Source: Candidatus Nanohalobium sp.
GTDB taxonomy: Archaea > Nanohalarchaeota > Nanosalinia > Nanosalinales > Nanosalinaceae
Direction: 5' to 3'
NCBI GenBank assembly: GCA_042216335.1
Contig: JBDGTY010000034.1
Location: 2,804 to 13,223, forward strand
DNA length: 10,420 nucleotides
The position numbers and the translations under genes were made by a program. A model generated the notes under the pieces. That model had not been told where the DNA came from. It ran no database searches and worked only from the letters and a program-made list of their open reading frames with translations. The number at the start of each line of letters is the position of its first letter. Within the stretch, counting starts at the first letter, position 1. Shown piece after piece: positions 4,328 through 9,564 of the stretch.

Positions 4328-4337
4328 AATTTAAATT
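4328..4337 (-). promoter_or_regulatory. Putative TATA box for the glycosyltransferase operon
   Basis: AATTTAAATT, abutting the truD stop, 24-33 bp upstream of ATG 4304. No Shine-Dalgarno visible, which fits leaderless geometry. Confidence 0.5.
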
Positions 4338-5530
4338 CAGTTATTCTTCCGGATCTCCCTCAGGAAGGTAGTGGCGTAGCAGCCCTTCGGCAGGTCGAAA
4401 CGGACACGCATCCTGTTCTTCGCCATGTTAAGGTCGTCCTCATCCACATCCAGGATCTCGAAGTTCCTGAAGTCAGCGAAAGCACGCCTCAGGGAACCCT
4501 CGGAACGCAGCTCTGGGATATCAGGAGTCCGGAAGTCATCCCTCTCGATACCTTCCTCTTCAAGAACCTCCTGCATAACCTGATCCGGCTTATTATCATT
4601 GAACTCGGTCTTGTAACCGACAAGAGGGATATCGTACTCCTCATCGTACCAGTCCTCCTCCAGAAGCCGGGAAAGCGTCCTGTTAAACACCCAGGACTGA
4701 TACGCATGGACGAACAAGGTCTGAAGGCCTTCAGGCAGCCTCTTGATCGCTCCCTGATAATCCCCAGGATTCTTCGTCAGGTGATACAGAAGAGTCTTCT
4801 CATACGTGAACTTCTCAGGGAAACGCTCAGCGGCACCTTCGACCTCTCGAGTCTCCCACAGCTCCTCCCGGACCTTCCTGATGCTCTTGTACTCATCGTC
4901 GTACGGCTTGGCGATATACGTCCAGACAGCCTCCTCGTAGTCACCCTTAAGGATAAGTCTTCCGACCTGGTGCGTGATAGGCCTTGAAGAGCCGAACCGC
5001 TGCGGTCCGAAATAGTTAGGCATCTTTCCATCCAGCTCATCCACGATCTTGAGCGTTCTGTCTCTGATATCCTCGATAGGCAGCTTGAGGTCTCTGATTG
5101 TTATGTCGAACCTGTTGGCCTTCAGGTTGCCAAGGCCGATCTTGCCGTTCTTGCCGACGACCTCGATGTCGAACTCGTCTGTGTATACGTTTCTGACCTC
5201 TTCCTCCTCAACGCCCTGGATGGAGATAAACTGCTCGGTCACGGCTCGTTTATCCTTGTTCCCGGCGTATCCGATCCGATTTCGAGAAATATGAAGCATC
5301 TTCGACAGTTTGTCGATGGCATCCATCGTCGTCATGTTCTGCTTCCGCAGCCTGACGATGAGGTGATCGCCTTCATCGCCTGTATCGTGAGAAGCCAGTT
5401 CCTTGACTACAAAGTCATCTACCTGCTCCTTGATCGCTCCATCAATTCCGTAGGAGTCAGTGTAGTAGTTCCAGTCCATTTTTCCGAAGTCAACGTCGAC
5501 TATAGAGTCATCTTCCATGTTATTATTCAT
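4337..5530 (-). CDS. truD: tRNA pseudouridine(13) synthase TruD
   Basis: DDFVVKE, GYAGNKDKRAVTEQ (catalytic Asp motif), GNLKANRFDITIR, PNYFGPQRFG, LFVHAYQSWVFN, FDLPKGCYAT. ATGA overlap with the pth2 stop supports start 5530; 5518 is an alternative start. Confidence 0.96.
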   Translation of the reverse strand: MNNNMEDDSIVDVDFGKMDWNYYTDSYGIDGAIKEQVDDFVVKELASHDTGDEGDHLIVRLRKQNMTTMDAIDKLSKMLHISRNRIGYAGNKDKRAVTEQFISIQGVEEEEVRNVYTDEFDIEVVGKNGKIGLGNLKANRFDITIRDLKLPIEDIRDRTLKIVDELDGKMPNYFGPQRFGSSRPITHQVGRLILKGDYEEAVWTYIAKPYDDEYKSIRKVREELWETREVEGAAERFPEKFTYEKTLLYHLTKNPGDYQGAIKRLPEGLQTLFVHAYQSWVFNRTLSRLLEEDWYDEEYDIPLVGYKTEFNDNKPDQVMQEVLEEEGIERDDFRTPDIPELRSEGSLRRAFADFRNFEILDVDEDDLNMAKNRMRVRFDLPKGCYATTFLREIRKNN

Positions 5531-5874
5531 TTTACCAGCTTCAAGTCTCCTGTAACCTTGTCGATTTTCTCCTCATCCGCCGGCCCCACTCCGAGAGCCG
5601 TAACAGTACCAGGCTTGACCTCTGTCCGCCCGGCATCCTTCACTAGGGCAGCAGGTATTTGTAAACCTTTCGCCCTCTCCAATCTTTCCTCAAGATCGTT
5701 CCCTGAGGATTCAACTACTACTTTTCGGCTTCCCTGATCTTCCCAGTCCTTCTGCATCTGTGAACCCACTTTCTTGTATGATTTAAGCGATGCGTGGCAC
5801 GCCTGGGAAATTTGCTTCCCCTTCGAAATACCCAAATCCTCTCTCAGCACGATTACCTGTTTCAACTGCGGCAT
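5527..5874 (-). CDS. pth2: Peptidyl-tRNA hydrolase Pth2 (archaeal/eukaryotic type)
   Basis: KQVIVLREDLGISKGKQISQACHAS, DAGRTEVKPGTVTALGVGP and IDKVTGDLKL are PTH2 family signatures; 115 aa. Confidence 0.96.
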   Translation of the reverse strand: MPQLKQVIVLREDLGISKGKQISQACHASLKSYKKVGSQMQKDWEDQGSRKVVVESSGNDLEERLERAKGLQIPAALVKDAGRTEVKPGTVTALGVGPADEEKIDKVTGDLKLVK

Positions 5875-5998: not shown

Positions 5999-6104
5999 TG
6001 GGTTCGCCCAGATTCGAACTGGGGATCTTCGCCTTGTAAGGGCGACGTCTTAGTCCAAAGCCAGCAGAGCTGAAACCTTGGATAACCAACTAGACCACGA
6101 ACCC
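5999..6104 (-). tRNA. tRNA-Val(UAC) containing a D-arm intron; CCA not encoded
   Basis: Spliced 74-nt sequence: GGGTTCG TG GTCT AGTTGGTTA T|GAC G TCGCC CTTACAA GGCGA AGATC CCCAG TTCGAAT CTGGG CGAACCC A. Acceptor, anticodon and T stems pair perfectly, anticodon is TAC, discriminator is A. Confidence 0.95.
6050..6081 (-). other. 32-nt tRNA intron at non-canonical position 22/23
   Basis: CCAAGGTTTCAGCTCTGCTGGCTTTGGACTAA interrupts the GGTTAT|GAC D-arm and folds into a relaxed bulge-helix-bulge motif. Junction could be off by 1 nt. Confidence 0.85.
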
Positions 6105-6132: not shown

Positions 6133-6140
6133 TTTTAAAA
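6133..6140 (-). promoter_or_regulatory. Putative TATA box for tRNA-Val
   Basis: TTTTAAAA, 29-36 bp upstream of the mature tRNA 5' end. Confidence 0.55.
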
Positions 6141-6150
6141 TAGAACCTCC

Positions 6151-9100
6151 CTACTCGACCTCCTTCTCCAAGATCGGGTCGTAAACTGTTTCGCCCGAAG
6201 AGTAGTACGGGTAGTAGACCAGCGAGACATCGGAATCAGGGAACTGGATCTCGATTTCCTCCCTTGTTACTTCCTTCTCTATCAGTTCATCCTCATTTAC
6301 ATTGTCCTCCTCCATTCCCAGATTGAACAACGATTCGACCACCTCAGTGCCCTCAAGCAGACCTTTCTTCTGGAGTTCCTCGACCTTTGAGGCAACTTTT
6401 GAGATACCGACATCAAGCTCGTCAACTATCTCCTGCTTGTCCTTCCCGTTCTTCAGGCAGTTGAAAACCTTTTCAGTCAGGCCGGAGACCGTCTTCCTCT
6501 CGGCCTTGACCTGGTCCTTCACGCCGTCGACCAGCTTCTTCTCGTTCAGGCCTTCGACAAGGTAGAAAGGATAATACGAACGGTCGAACTTCTCGCCGTA
6601 CTCACTCTCCACGTCATCCAGCTCCCGGCGAGGACTGAAGAACCTGATCTTCTCCTTCTCCTGGTAGTTGTCACCGGTCTGCGTCTCGCCGCCGTGCTTC
6701 GATTTCCTCGTCCGTACCTCGGTCATAACAGGATACTCGTTTCCAAGCGCGAAACAGACTCCCGGAGGAAGAGACTTAATCATCGACTCGACCTCGGAGT
6801 TGATGCCCTCAAAGGATTTTGAGATCGCCTTCAGGTCGTTCGGATTGGTCACACGGAGGATGAACTGAGTGTTACACTGAGACAGCACGTTCTTGTCGAT
6901 ACGGGCCGGTCTCTGAGAAATCACTCCTATACCCAGACCGAACTTCCTTCCCTCGGACGCTATCTTCCTCATTATATCGTTGCTGAGCGTCTGGCCGAAG
7001 CCTTTCTCCGGAACAAAGTTGTGGGCCTCCTCCATAATCATAAGGAACGGCGGAATCCTGTTCTCCTTCCGCATATCGAAAAGCTTCTTCGCCAGCATGT
7101 AAGCCGTCATCTCAGTCGTATCCGGTTCCACAGCCTTCAGGTTGATGACAGTCGCCCTGCCAGGCTCAACCAGATCCTCCAGGTCGATCGGATTCTGGCT
7201 GAAAAGACCGGACTCCTCCAGTTGCTCCAGATAGTTCAACAGGTTCCATTTAGCGGTAGAGTCCTCCTGCGAAACCGCATCTTCAATATCCACAAGAGAG
7301 TAATCATCGTCTTTCTCCTTCAAACGCTTCAAAGCATTGTAGAGAACCCCCATCTGCGAGTTGGTGAGGGAATCAGGGATAAGAGTCATCAGCTCCTTTT
7401 TATCGAGGTTCAGAGACGAGAACTTCAGCGGCAGAGCATCCTGATTGATGTCCGTGTTAGGGGAAAATTCCTTGACCTCGTAGCTCCTCTGTTCCTCTTC
7501 ATTCTCAGGATTAGGATATTGTAGAGAAGAATACTCACCGTGAGGATCCATTATAAGCACAGGAAAGTCGTCTTCAAGCAATTCCTCTATTATAACACCT
7601 GTAAGATAGCTGTTATGCGATACGATACCTCCGGTACCTGCGACAAAGTTGTGGTGTTCTCTGACCGTTAAGTCGTAGACGTAGCCCGAGTAATCTTTTT
7701 CTTCTATTGAGACTATCTCGTCCCAGTAAAGATCAGAACTTGCGAGATCGTTGAAAATCTGGCTGTCAAGTTCCTCTGCCATAGCCGAGAACTTCTCCCT
7801 AGAAGGTCTTCTTTCATCCCTCTCATAGAGAGAAACTAGTGTGGAGTGCGAATCTATCTCCTCCGCCAGTTCTCTCTGCGAGATCCCCACTTTGTTTCTC
7901 TCCTTCTTCAGGTAATCTCCTTCTAAGGGAACTACATCAGAGTTAGTGTTTCCTTCTTTCTCTCCCACATATTTCTCCAGCTTTTCCTGCTTCCTGTCTA
8001 TTCCAAAACCTATTTTTTCGGCGAACTTCTGCATCTGTCCGACTCCACTGATACATAACCTGTAGTAGGTATCTCCTTCGTGATCGGAATTGGTAGCCCT
8101 CTTCTCTTTAGAGGAGATTCTCGAAACTATTCCAAAGTCCAGAAGCATGTAGCTTAGAGAGTTAATAACTTCTTTGCTCGCGGACGCAAGGGTTACTTCG
8201 TGATCCTCCATACAGCCCTCACAGTCGTAGAAAGTCCTCAGAAACCTCCTCTTTGACTTCTTCGAGGAACGCATGACTCTATTTGGAACCTTCTTGGTTC
8301 TTGATCTCTGAAGAGTTTCGTATCCTATATCCTCAAGTAAGTGTTTCAGCGAGGTTGAGTCGATATAGTCAGCATTCTCTCTCATTTTGCGGGTTTCAAG
8401 CCCGAAAAGCTCTTTCGAAAGAGTCCTGAATCTCTGCATCAAACGTGTATCATCGTTGGTAAAGACGACTCTATAGCTCCCTCCAGCCTGCTGCTCTGCA
8501 CCTTCCGCGATGACTAAACTAAGGAACTCCGCCAGCTCAGGAGAAAACCTTTCAGGAACCTGGATGCCTTTCGAATTCATCGATAAAGCCAATCCAGAAT
8601 CCTCATCCGGAACAGACCCCTGATACTTCCACTTCTCGATAGTGCCTCTTGGAACATCCAGTTCTCCCTCCATGTCGGAGATACCCATACCTGTCTCCTC
8701 AAGTTCGCTGTATTTATCGTATTGTTCCTGTATATTTTCTCTTCTCTCGGATTCCTCACCAGCTCTAGACTTAAGTCCTTCAGAAAGCTCTAGACTCTCA
8801 TCCGAAGTCGTAGATATTTCACGAGGCACGGCAATATGCTGACCCTCTTCTATATCTCCCGACTCAACAAAGCTATAACCTTCCTCTGCAACCATCAAAG
8901 GATGTTCCCGAGTTACTTCTATTTCACGACCAGACGCAGTCTTTACCTCCAGAATTTTATCTGCTTTTTTCCGATAGGCGTAAATCGCATCAGCATCAGT
9001 AAAGCTGTAACTATCATCAAGAGCCTTTACAGAGCAATCATTCAAAATCCTCAGTTCTTCCTCATCATCCTCTTTAACCACCTGATCCGAGCTTTCGAAA

Positions 9101-9564
9101 ACCTTCTTTATCGGAACCGTGCTCCCGTCAGACATCAAAACACTTGTCTCAGGAGCCACACACTTCCCTGCCCCAGTCTGTGCCAGGACCGCAAAATGCT
9201 TGTAGAAGTCCTCTGGATCGACATGGATGTCAATCTCCGGGTTGGTTTCCAGGTTTCCGATAGTCAGGCCTTCATCGTCGAGCCCCAGTGTTTCCGAGAT
9301 AAGTTCCTGGTCCGCCTGGTAGACTATGCTGTCGGGCTCTATCACTCTTCTCGGCGCTTTCGTCAGCCCTTTGTCTCTGTACCCGATTATACTTGCCTGT
9401 GCGTGTGTTTCTCCATCCGAGTTCTTAGTCACTTCCTCAACCTGGGCGAGGATCCACTGCTCGTTGCTCTTCACCGATACAAAATCGAATTTCTTGACCT
9501 CTTCCGTCGCCCTGAACTTGAAGTTGGAAGTGTTGACCTCTCCTTCAATCGTTCCTACCTGCAT
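6151..9564 (-). CDS. herA: HerA/FtsK-family ATPase (HAS barrel + DUF87-type ATPase), intein-containing precursor of 1137 aa; 620 aa after splicing
   Basis: N-terminal HAS-barrel-like domain, HFAVLAQTGAGK|SY Walker A (split by the intein), IMDPHGEY, Walker B LMIMEEAHNF, SEGRKFGLG, ISQRPA. It may be a paralogue rather than the NurA-associated orthologue. Confidence 0.88.
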   Translation of the reverse strand: MQVGTIEGEVNTSNFKFRATEEVKKFDFVSVKSNEQWILAQVEEVTKNSDGETHAQASIIGYRDKGLTKAPRRVIEPDSIVYQADQELISETLGLDDEGLTIGNLETNPEIDIHVDPEDFYKHFAVLAQTGAGKCVAPETSVLMSDGSTVPIKKVFESSDQVVKEDDEEELRILNDCSVKALDDSYSFTDADAIYAYRKKADKILEVKTASGREIEVTREHPLMVAEEGYSFVESGDIEEGQHIAVPREISTTSDESLELSEGLKSRAGEESERRENIQEQYDKYSELEETGMGISDMEGELDVPRGTIEKWKYQGSVPDEDSGLALSMNSKGIQVPERFSPELAEFLSLVIAEGAEQQAGGSYRVVFTNDDTRLMQRFRTLSKELFGLETRKMRENADYIDSTSLKHLLEDIGYETLQRSRTKKVPNRVMRSSKKSKRRFLRTFYDCEGCMEDHEVTLASASKEVINSLSYMLLDFGIVSRISSKEKRATNSDHEGDTYYRLCISGVGQMQKFAEKIGFGIDRKQEKLEKYVGEKEGNTNSDVVPLEGDYLKKERNKVGISQRELAEEIDSHSTLVSLYERDERRPSREKFSAMAEELDSQIFNDLASSDLYWDEIVSIEEKDYSGYVYDLTVREHHNFVAGTGGIVSHNSYLTGVIIEELLEDDFPVLIMDPHGEYSSLQYPNPENEEEQRSYEVKEFSPNTDINQDALPLKFSSLNLDKKELMTLIPDSLTNSQMGVLYNALKRLKEKDDDYSLVDIEDAVSQEDSTAKWNLLNYLEQLEESGLFSQNPIDLEDLVEPGRATVINLKAVEPDTTEMTAYMLAKKLFDMRKENRIPPFLMIMEEAHNFVPEKGFGQTLSNDIMRKIASEGRKFGLGIGVISQRPARIDKNVLSQCNTQFILRVTNPNDLKAISKSFEGINSEVESMIKSLPPGVCFALGNEYPVMTEVRTRKSKHGGETQTGDNYQEKEKIRFFSPRRELDDVESEYGEKFDRSYYPFYLVEGLNEKKLVDGVKDQVKAERKTVSGLTEKVFNCLKNGKDKQEIVDELDVGISKVASKVEELQKKGLLEGTEVVESLFNLGMEEDNVNEDELIEKEVTREEIEIQFPDSDVSLVYYPYYSSGETVYDPILEKEVE
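7612..9162 (-). mobile_element. Intein (517 aa, residues 135-651) with LAGLIDADG homing endonuclease and HTH domain(s)
   Basis: Block A CVAPETSVLMSDG, block B IEVTREHPLM, block C LAEFLSLVIAEG, block E FLRTFYDCEG, block H SLSYMLLDFGIVSRI, block F YVYDLTVREHHNFVA, block G IVSHN followed by Ser+1. Removal restores TGAGKS. Confidence 0.96.

Follow-up and report, generated by a model that had tools for sequence, protein, structure and literature searches.

The primary surveys of non-canonical bulge-helix-bulge (BHB) introns in archaeal tRNA genes are reportedly those of Marck and Grosjean from 2003 and of Sugahara and co-workers from 2008. Position 22/23 is one of the listed non-canonical intron sites, and such sites, among them 20/21, 22/23, 25/26 and others, are described for Crenarchaeota and Nanoarchaeota (Yoshihisa, 2014, PMC4090602; this and all papers below are cited from excerpts). 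A D-arm intron of the HBh′ form, in which the exon-side helix is missing, is known from the pre-tRNA-Glu(UUC) of Methanopyrus kandleri, whose splicing endonuclease is an (alpha-beta)2 enzyme without a specific loop that cuts this intron poorly in vitro (Kaneta et al., 2018, PMC5829648). Here, we analyzed a stretch of 10,420 nucleotides of contig JBDGTY010000034.1 (assembly GCA_042216335.1, Candidatus Nanohalobium sp.), called the window in the following, which contains a tRNA-Val(UAC) gene with an insert in its D-arm. Judged from sequence comparisons, this is most likely a functional nanohaloarchaeal (DPANN) tRNA-Val(UAC) gene with a 32-nt protein-spliced intron at 22/23, a reading to which we assign a probability of roughly 0.88.

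With the introns of Crenarchaeota and Nanoarchaeota, the element shares the site class 22/23, the BHB logic and the difficulty of annotation, whereas it differs from them in its nanohaloarchaeal host with a single alpha-type EndA splicing endonuclease and in its patchy occurrence among close relatives (10 of 50 genomes, belonging to two separate clades). Similar to the intron of M. kandleri, it is located in the D-arm and has the HBh′ form. In contrast to M. kandleri, the EndA of the present genome is encoded by a single gene and carries an insertion of the type called L3.

The tRNA-Val(UAC) gene and its insert

All coordinates are window positions, and the gene is read on the minus strand, from 6104 to 5999. 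The gene and its upstream region are made up as follows.

5999..6104, minus strand: tRNA-Val(UAC) gene, 106-nt pre-tRNA (nucleotide 1 at 6104, discriminator A73 at 5999)
6082..6104, minus strand: 5′ exon, tRNA positions 1-22 (acceptor 5′ strand, U8 G9, D-stem 5′ strand, D-loop to U22)
6050..6081, minus strand: 32-nt intron between tRNA positions 22/23 (CCAAGG...GGACUAA), placed by ortholog comparison
5999..6049, minus strand: 3′ exon, tRNA positions 23-73
6133..6142, minus strand: A/T-rich TATA-like box ATTTTAAAA, 29-38 nt upstream of tRNA nucleotide 1

The anticodon TAC is found at 6038-6036, and the CCA end is not encoded. Acceptor stem, anticodon arm and T-arm are all regular, and the D-arm is split by 32 nt. 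On the unspliced gene, ARAGORN called a 71-nt tRNA-Val at 6000-6070, and the Rfam tRNA model matched 5999-6062 with 35.3 bits (cut-off 29), as compared to 45-70 bits for the other tRNAs of the genome. Both tools detect the gene but mis-model it, because intron sequence is borrowed as a false 5′ half, which supports the concern of the original prediction that standard annotation may miss this tRNA. When 6081..6050 was removed, ARAGORN called a 74-nt tRNA-Val(tac) across the whole product.

Such poor or wrong models would also fit a pseudogene, that is, a tRNA-Val inactivated by the 32-nt insertion whose function has been taken over by another gene, and in an assembly that is 96.2% complete (1.02 Mb in 74 contigs, 49.4% G+C) a second copy could be missing. 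However, a BLAST search of the mature sequence against this assembly found neither a second Val(UAC) gene, the intact twin that had been named beforehand as the mark of a pseudogene, nor a Val(CAC) gene. Furthermore, an insert at the same site is present in ten genomes of three genera, the exons are intact, and acceptor-stem variants among relatives are compensatory (e.g., GGGTCCA...TGGACCC in G019). The gene is preceded by a TATA-like box, and the boundaries of the insert match a BHB register expected in about 5 of 10,000 shuffles (see below). Taken together, a pseudogene is very unlikely. Most of 26 loci inspected show a comparable A/T box at a similar distance, as judged by eye and without scoring, while the flanks outside of it were unalignable across these loci; the box at 6133..6142 presumably serves as promoter. 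As the sole Val(UAC) gene found, with compensatory acceptor changes and a TATA-like box, the gene appears to be needed and looks expressed.

Orthologs fix the splice junction

The 106-nt sequence was searched against 41 related genomes, and 23 tRNA-Val(UAC) genes were extracted from the fetched loci. This count leaves out locus L023, which is a Val(GAC) gene, and six loci from which no gene was recovered with the anchors used. Nine of the 23 genes are intron-less, nine carry only an intron in the anticodon loop (37/38), four have a D-arm insert and one has both. The intron-less orthologs are 74 nt long with the D-arm GGTTATGAC, identical to the window gene minus 6081..6050. After excision, the mature D-arm of the window gene reads GGUUAUGAC, and the mature junction is GGUUAU/GAC, base-exact from the nine intron-less orthologs. 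No other pair of cut sites yields the 74-nt product, because the bases flanking both junctions differ, and cleavage after the second nucleotide of each bulge corresponds to the exact removal of 6081..6050 (32 nt). The non-canonical 22/23 intron and the mature D-arm that had been proposed from the sequence of the window are supported by the orthologs.

If the 32-nt excision were shifted by one base, the intron would be spliced at 21/22, resulting in GGUUAAGAC with the 4-bp Watson-Crick D-stem GUCU/AGAC and with a U13-A22 pair instead of the U13-U22 mismatch. The minimum-energy fold indeed forms GUCU/AGAC. Nevertheless, GGTTATGAC and not GGTTAAGAC is the sequence found in all 18 orthologs that lack a D-arm intron, and the 21/22 junction, which would give GGTTAAGAC, is excluded by this comparison. 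In addition, the shifted cuts would miss the expected position behind the second nucleotide in two bulges spaced by 4 bp. Splicing at 21/22 is thus extremely unlikely and the least probable of the alternatives considered here.

A relaxed BHB motif spans both splice sites

The elements of the motif are listed below; the original prediction had drawn the insert, its helices, bulges and hairpin in the same way, and every one of them is present at its place on the minus strand.

6084..6087, minus strand: helix H, 5′ strand, G18 G19 U20 U20a of the D-loop (GGUU), pairing with 6055-6052
6052..6055, minus strand: helix H, 3′ strand GACU, intronic
6081..6083, minus strand: 5′ bulge AU/C, 5′ splice site between 6082 and 6081
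6049..6051, minus strand: 3′ bulge AA/G, 3′ splice site between 6050 and 6049
6076..6080, minus strand: intron-side helix h′, 5′ strand CAAGG, pairing with 6060-6056, extendable to 7 pairs
6056..6060, minus strand: intron-side helix h′, 3′ strand CUUUG
6062..6072, minus strand: inner hairpin CAGC-UCU-GCUG

The four pairs of helix H are G-U, G-C, U-A and U-G. Two 3-nt bulges on opposite strands with a 4-bp helix between them make the element a BHB by definition. It departs from the strict hBHBh′ form, with 5-7 bp in h′ and the single pair U17-A24 in the exon-side helix h, and the motif is of the relaxed HBh′ type because h has 1 bp only. Of 100,000 shuffles of the insert, 52 gave a complete helix H (4/4) together with at least five intron-side pairs in register, as compared to 4/4 and seven pairs in the observed sequence; it is therefore unlikely that the BHB register arose by chance. 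A count of contiguous pairs had suggested that h′ comprises at most two pairs in all 20 canonical introns of the genome; this contrast was dropped, as constrained folding shows an offset or branched closing helix in many of them.

Conservation and distribution of the D-arm intron

A pattern search across 50 genomes of the family (Nanohaloarchaea) revealed the D-arm intron at the 22/23 site in ten of them. The holders belong to three genera, g1 (3 of 4 genomes, including G000, the genome holding the window), g17 (2 of 3) and g11 (5 of 5), and represent eight distinct intron sequences, all of them with H 4/4, both bulges and at least three pairs in h′. Standard pairs occupy 98.6% of the 72 pair cells of the alignment, a share that drops to 64-67% when the partners are slid by one column. 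The h′ strands are paired in 97.5% of the cells, and three of their five pairs are changed on both sides. Overall, three pairs are changed on both sides, with 9 of 500 shuffles scoring as high, and all three of these two-sided changes come from G064 alone. The intron of this genome is an unrelated 40-nt sequence with the same H, bulges and h′, in which GAUC replaces GACU and still pairs 4/4. The inner hairpin likewise shows compensatory variants, namely UAGC/GCUA (G013, G063) and CAGU/ACUG (G001), which are C-G to U-A swaps.

These data also bear on the possibility that the 32 nt are retained and that the tRNA works with an enlarged, hairpin-bearing D-loop, from which the stable hairpin of the insert could protrude. 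In both the minimum-energy and the BHB fold, however, the insert engages G18 and G19 in base pairs, which would leave them unavailable for D-loop/T-loop contact. Moreover, covariation keeps the helix-bulge register and not merely the hairpin, the unrelated 40-nt sequence of G064 preserves the same H, bulges and h′, and three other tRNAs of the genome have inserts in the same register. A retained insertion is accordingly improbable as well, ranking first among the three rival explanations and the pseudogene second.

For a phylogenetic view, a maximum-likelihood tree of the flanking proteins was calculated from 27 loci and 897 columns, with L017, which is without PTH2 and TruD matches, left out. 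The ten holders fall into two clades with a 100/99 branch between them, and genomes that are intron-less or carry only the 37/38 intron are nested inside both holder clades. Forcing the ten holders together was 337 log-likelihood units worse (approximately unbiased test, p = 0.00016, for a group named after a first tree had been seen). The D-arm introns being clearly homologous, this distribution implies either one old gain followed by many losses or lateral spread. The introns of G000 and G019 are identical at 32 of 32 positions, whereas their TruD proteins are only 75% identical. Recent lateral transfer as an explanation of this identity is weakened by the finding that the sequence equals the majority consensus of all variants; for the same reason, both genomes may retain the ancestral intron. 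Two scans of metagenome contigs, one with a 27-nt intron/exon pattern and one with a degenerate gapped pattern, yielded no further intron copies. The same applies to the genome itself, for which a survey for intron transposition had been suggested: a BLAST search of the 32-nt intron against G000 returned its own locus only, plus matches of at most 14 nt at E values of at least 1.

The splicing endonuclease and ligase of the genome

The genome contains one EndA gene of 181 aa, located outside the window on G000:C10 (L001:1264-1809), which is matched by both PF02778 and PF01974 with domain scores of 92.6 and 44.2 bits. A search of the genome with four family models (PF01974, PF02778, NF006795, and NF007086) found no beta subunit. 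A PF01974 match in a 290-aa open reading frame on contig C19 reached 13 bits against a family cut-off of 27 and was rejected as a beta subunit. In line with this, exactly one EndA match was found in 30 of 31 family genomes, the exception being G015 with two matches and 7% contamination. The AlphaFold model of EndA has a mean predicted local distance difference test (pLDDT) score of 91, and its best fold match is the Methanocaldococcus jannaschii EndA 1a79_A over the full length, with template modeling (TM) scores of 0.81/0.85. The architecture is alpha4-like, because a single 181-aa gene comprises both domains and no second subunit was found. An RtcB gene is also present (G000:C6:208-1497, E 2.6e-161).

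The best relatives of this EndA are from Nanohaloarchaea, the closest named record being a Candidatus Nanohalobium metagenome-assembled genome with 85% identity. The host is thereby placed among the nanohaloarchaea and not among the haloarchaea, Thermoproteales or ARMAN lineages with which the locus had been discussed in the original prediction.

Between Y110 and H127, the loop of the enzyme comprises 16 residues, as compared to 9 in M. jannaschii and 8-9 in short-loop relatives. The additional residues align with insertions that contain Lys in the Nanoarchaeum equitans alpha subunit and in ARMAN-2, and a long insertion between Tyr and His was present in all 37 nanohaloarchaeal EndA loci examined. 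In N. equitans and ARMAN-2 EndA, the insertion is described as lying “at exactly same location” (Fujishima et al., 2011, PMC3239211), and the available text of two studies ties it to the cleavage of relaxed motifs (Fujishima et al., 2011, PMC3239211; Kaneta et al., 2018, PMC5829648). In the latter study, the loop is named L3, L3-bearing alpha4 enzymes are reported from several DPANN lineages, one nanohaloarchaeon being included in the survey, and these lineages are said to have more disrupted tRNA genes. By our reading of their text, the insertion described here corresponds to L3. The surveyed enzyme, from Nanohaloarchaea archaeon SG9, is 62% identical to the present one and has the same architecture and Tyr-His insertion.

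The ARMAN-2 epsilon2 and N. equitans (alpha-beta)2 enzymes (4fz2/9w2k and 3iey) are similar in having a Lys insertion at the same place and hosts with relaxed introns. According to the excerpted sources (Fujishima et al., 2011, PMC3239211; NAR, 2025, PMC12397907), they differ in that they retain the canonical catalytic lysine and are built from three units or two subunits, and the ARMAN-2 enzyme additionally relies on an N-terminal ASL loop (K161). The broad-specificity EndA that had been postulated for this organism therefore holds in part: the enzyme is not of the (alpha-beta)2 or epsilon2 type but a single 181-aa alpha-type protein, whereas a Lys-rich insertion linked to relaxed motifs is present in its C-terminal domain. 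This Lys-bearing insertion would allow an alpha-type EndA to accept a substrate without an exon-side helix.

EndA lacks the canonical catalytic lysine

The Tyr-His-Lys triad of the endonuclease is incomplete. Y110 and H127 are present, and Ala158 occupies the position of the lysine, where it aligns with the catalytic Lys of 5x89 (K334), 1a79, 3iey, and 4fz2 in HMMER alignments (“NIRA” versus “SVRK”). In M. kandleri, the catalytic lysine is K334 (Kaneta et al., 2018, PMC5829648). In a set of 81 EndA sequences (G000 and 80 loci), this position is Ala (68) or Ser (3) in all 71 long-loop sequences and Lys in all ten short-loop ones. The 71 long-loop cases are not independent, because they represent essentially two clades (Nanohaloarchaea and Aenigmarchaeota). 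As seen in the sequence listing of this set, every long loop has a lysine at a fixed place, which is K120 in the present enzyme.

A wider set consisted of 151 proteins (the best 150 representatives and the query), of which the domains with both Tyr and His were examined. Lys is kept in 129 of 133 domains with a short loop. Ten domains combine a long loop with Ala or Ser; nine of them have a loop of the GV..K.G.K kind, and the tenth is the N-terminal repeat of protein P0002. Twelve long-loop domains keep the Lys; two of these have N. equitans-like loops (P0116, P0124), and four, with ARMAN-2-like loops, come from proteins 390-418 aa in length. These sequence patterns could be read as an early insertion followed by the loss of the old lysine, whose role passed to the lysine of the loop. 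In the excerpts available, the triad is called conserved and a loss of the lysine is not mentioned (e.g., Kaneta et al., 2018, PMC5829648; NAR, 2025, PMC12397907). The former study describes the triad as well conserved, in contrast to the Ala or Ser of the subfamily described here.

P0002 (360 aa) is an EndA-like protein that consists of two repeats. Each of them retains Tyr and His, has Ser in place of the lysine, and contains a long loop; that of the second repeat is of the GVKLKRGxK kind. Judging from these features, P0002 is possibly a fused member of the lysine-less EndA subfamily.

Proposed splicing reaction and points against it

In the proposed reaction, base pairing between G18 G19 U20 U20a of the precursor and the 3′ end of the intron would create the 4-bp central helix, with a 3-nt bulge on either side of it. 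An intron helix of 5-7 bp would close the 5′ bulge, and the 3′ bulge would open directly onto a D-stem strand. The single EndA would then cleave each bulge 3′ of its second nucleotide, and RtcB would join U22 to G23, by which G18 and G19 would be freed for the normal D-loop/T-loop contact. The anatomy of the gene, the exact junction, the covarying conservation and the presence of EndA and RtcB are established by the observations above.

Several points weigh against this reaction. The exon-side helix consists of one base pair. For the whole pre-tRNA, the BHB conformer has an energy of -34.6 kcal/mol as compared to a minimum of -41.8 kcal/mol (gap 7.2), and for the local 49 nt the values are -9.3 and -14.3 kcal/mol; this local gap of 5.0 kcal/mol lies within the range of 0 to 8.9 that 20 canonical introns of this genome span. 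The minimum-energy fold places both splice sites inside helices. This fold was also considered as the recognized structure and rejected, as its two bulges are on the same strand; since both junctions lie inside helices, it is not the substrate. With regard to the enzyme, the chemistry of EndA is not the textbook one, because Ala158 replaces the catalytic lysine. Its alpha4-type assembly is read from the gene architecture and the fold match, and the homotetramer is accordingly putative. The alpha4 architecture is described as strict, and no assayed L3-bearing alpha4 enzyme is reported in the available text of the respective study (Kaneta et al., 2018, PMC5829648). Finally, cleavage in vivo is a prediction from sequence.

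Other tRNA genes and introns of the genome

The census of tRNA genes in the genome reached 35, 33 of them called by ARAGORN with introns allowed, to which a scan for T-arms and acceptor stems added Leu(CAA) and Leu(CAG). The census is incomplete, as several tRNA species, for example Asp and Tyr, were not found. Intron classes were assigned by excising BHB candidates and re-scanning. Ten genes are intron-less, 21 have one anticodon-loop intron (20 by the scan and Cys by eye), and four have a D-loop intron, namely Val(UAC), Gln(CUG), Leu(CAA) and Leu(CAG). The three D-loop intron genes other than Val(UAC) are the following.

G000:C63:3-118 (L126), minus strand: Gln(CUG), 43-nt D-loop intron
G000:C10:5244-5369 (L127), minus strand: Leu(CAA), 43-nt D-loop intron, central helix with 3 of 4 pairs
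G000:C45:21831-22100 (L128), plus strand: Leu(CAG), 126-nt D-loop intron and 60-nt anticodon-loop intron

In all four genes, the 5′ strand of H consists of G18 G19 plus two nucleotides, the cut lies 4 nt after G19, h′ has at least five pairs and h has 0-1 pairs. ARAGORN misses Leu(CAA) and Leu(CAG) and mis-places the Gln(CUG) intron. Among the 50 genomes, a full-length Gln D-loop intron was found only in G000 and G001, and short Leu D-loop introns were found in five with a narrow pattern. D-loop introns thus come and go within the family.

Additional observations concern the canonical introns. Two genes called as Ser by ARAGORN read differently on the basis of the anticodon loop, a 4-nt variable loop and a G3-U70 pair: “Ser(gct)” at G000:C38:14719-14841 as Cys(GCA) and “Ser(cga)” at G000:C58:38555-38701 as Ala(CGC), each with a canonical intron. 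Val(GAC), Trp(CCA) and Thr(UGU) have anticodon-loop introns that share the 5′ start G(G)GACTGGTTACGCTC (G000:C40:3005-3152, C53:22014-22300 and, for Thr(UGU), C55; also L030). The near-identical motif GGATTGGTTACGCTC opens the Val(UAC) intron of G012, and CTGGTTACGCTC is located 3′ of tRNA-Val in two relatives (G011, G007). The motif GACTGGTTACGCTC/GGATTGGTTACGCTC/CTGGTTACGCTC may mark a family of related introns or serve as a processing signal. The introns of Arg(UCU) (G000:C48:1949-2091) and Ala(CGC) (G000:C58:38555-38701) share CTGCCGTAGCAGTT[A/G]GCAATAC and a similar second hairpin, which suggests that they are related despite being in different tRNA genes. Six tRNA genes are positioned at the very ends of contigs (C46, C47, C53, C62, C63, C66). 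The assembly therefore tends to break at tRNA genes, and the missing tRNA species may sit in such gaps.

Neighboring genes and a putative homing-endonuclease partner

The tRNA-Val gene is flanked by three protein-coding genes.

6151..9564, minus strand: HerA/DUF87-type ATPase gene, intein-interrupted, upstream neighbor of tRNA-Val
5527-5874, minus strand: PTH2 peptidyl-tRNA hydrolase, downstream neighbor
4337-5530, minus strand: TruD pseudouridine synthase (pseudouridine-13 enzyme family), downstream neighbor

The HerA intein covers residues ~143-651 and contains LAGLIDADG_3 and HTH_3 domains. The order HerA, tRNA-Val, PTH2, TruD is kept in 22 of the 23 Val(UAC) loci. In four of the ten intron holders, HerA and tRNA-Val are separated by about 1 kb, in which a free-standing LAGLIDADG_3 gene encodes a protein with two LAGLIDADG-like motifs (PF14528, E 2e-6 to 7e-6). 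In these four relatives, the gene abuts the 5′ end of tRNA-Val, 22 nt from the intron site. Intact copies are found at L124:527-1492 (plus strand) and L123:1579-2568 (minus strand), and decayed ones in L008 and L007. Counted to the tRNA start, the open frame comprises 322 aa in G043 and 330 aa in G064, while the gene is frameshifted in G002 and has four stops in G001. The frame runs four codons into the tRNA, since the full open frames comprise 326 and 334 aa, with the TAG at tRNA nucleotides 13-15 as the predicted stop codon. Close homologs (E 1e-20 or better) are present only in these four of the 50 genomes and only at this spot, and no such gene was found in 17 loci without a D-arm intron. 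The window is without it as well, with 46 nt between the HerA stop codon and the tRNA. A relation between the free-standing protein and the intein nuclease of HerA was not detected by BLASTP (E 0.47).

Elsewhere in the genome, a 215-aa open reading frame (L159:1292-1939, plus strand, corresponding to G000:C10:6291-6938) shows sub-threshold LAGLIDADG matches of 20 and 18.7 bits. It ends at the 3′ end of an intron-less tRNA-Met gene on the opposite strand and is a distant relative of the nuclease next to tRNA-Val in the related genomes (23% identity, E 2e-8).

Tentatively, the Val D-arm intron could be one half of a mobile pair with the LAGLIDADG gene that spreads by collaborative homing, although we consider this rather unlikely. 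The nuclease may cut intron-less tRNA-Val DNA at or near 22/23, with the intron protecting its carrier, and repair may copy the nuclease gene together with the intron into new lineages. Later on, the nuclease gene may decay and leave behind orphan introns such as the one of the window. F-CphI is reportedly a phage example of collaborative homing. The present locus resembles the phage system in having a free-standing nuclease gene beside an intron-interrupted gene in four of ten holders. It differs from it in that the intron is protein-spliced and not of group I, that activity and target of the nuclease are putative, and that the gene is absent from the window. A literature search found no paper on such a nuclease partnership for protein-spliced tRNA introns.

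Significance

Considered alone, the intron is a further example of a non-canonical intron in an archaeal tRNA, and two common gene finders mis-model its gene. Together with the endonuclease of its host, it represents a natural HBh′ substrate without exon-side helix next to a sole EndA of the “strict” alpha4 architecture, and this pair of substrate and enzyme bears on the bioinformatic claim that the L3 insertion and not the subunit type sets specificity (Kaneta et al., 2018, PMC5829648). The EndA subfamily without the canonical lysine and with an invariant loop lysine provides a testable case of a relocated active-site residue. The points of interest to specialists are this alpha4-type enzyme, with its loop lysine and without the canonical one, and the presence/absence system with an occasional homing-endonuclease neighbor. 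Among close relatives, one and the same syntenic locus occurs with the intron, without it or with an anticodon-loop intron in its place, and in some relatives a homing-endonuclease gene accompanies the intron, which makes the tRNA-Val locus a compact system for questions of intron gain and loss. If true, collaborative homing would be a concrete mechanism for the gain of protein-spliced tRNA introns.

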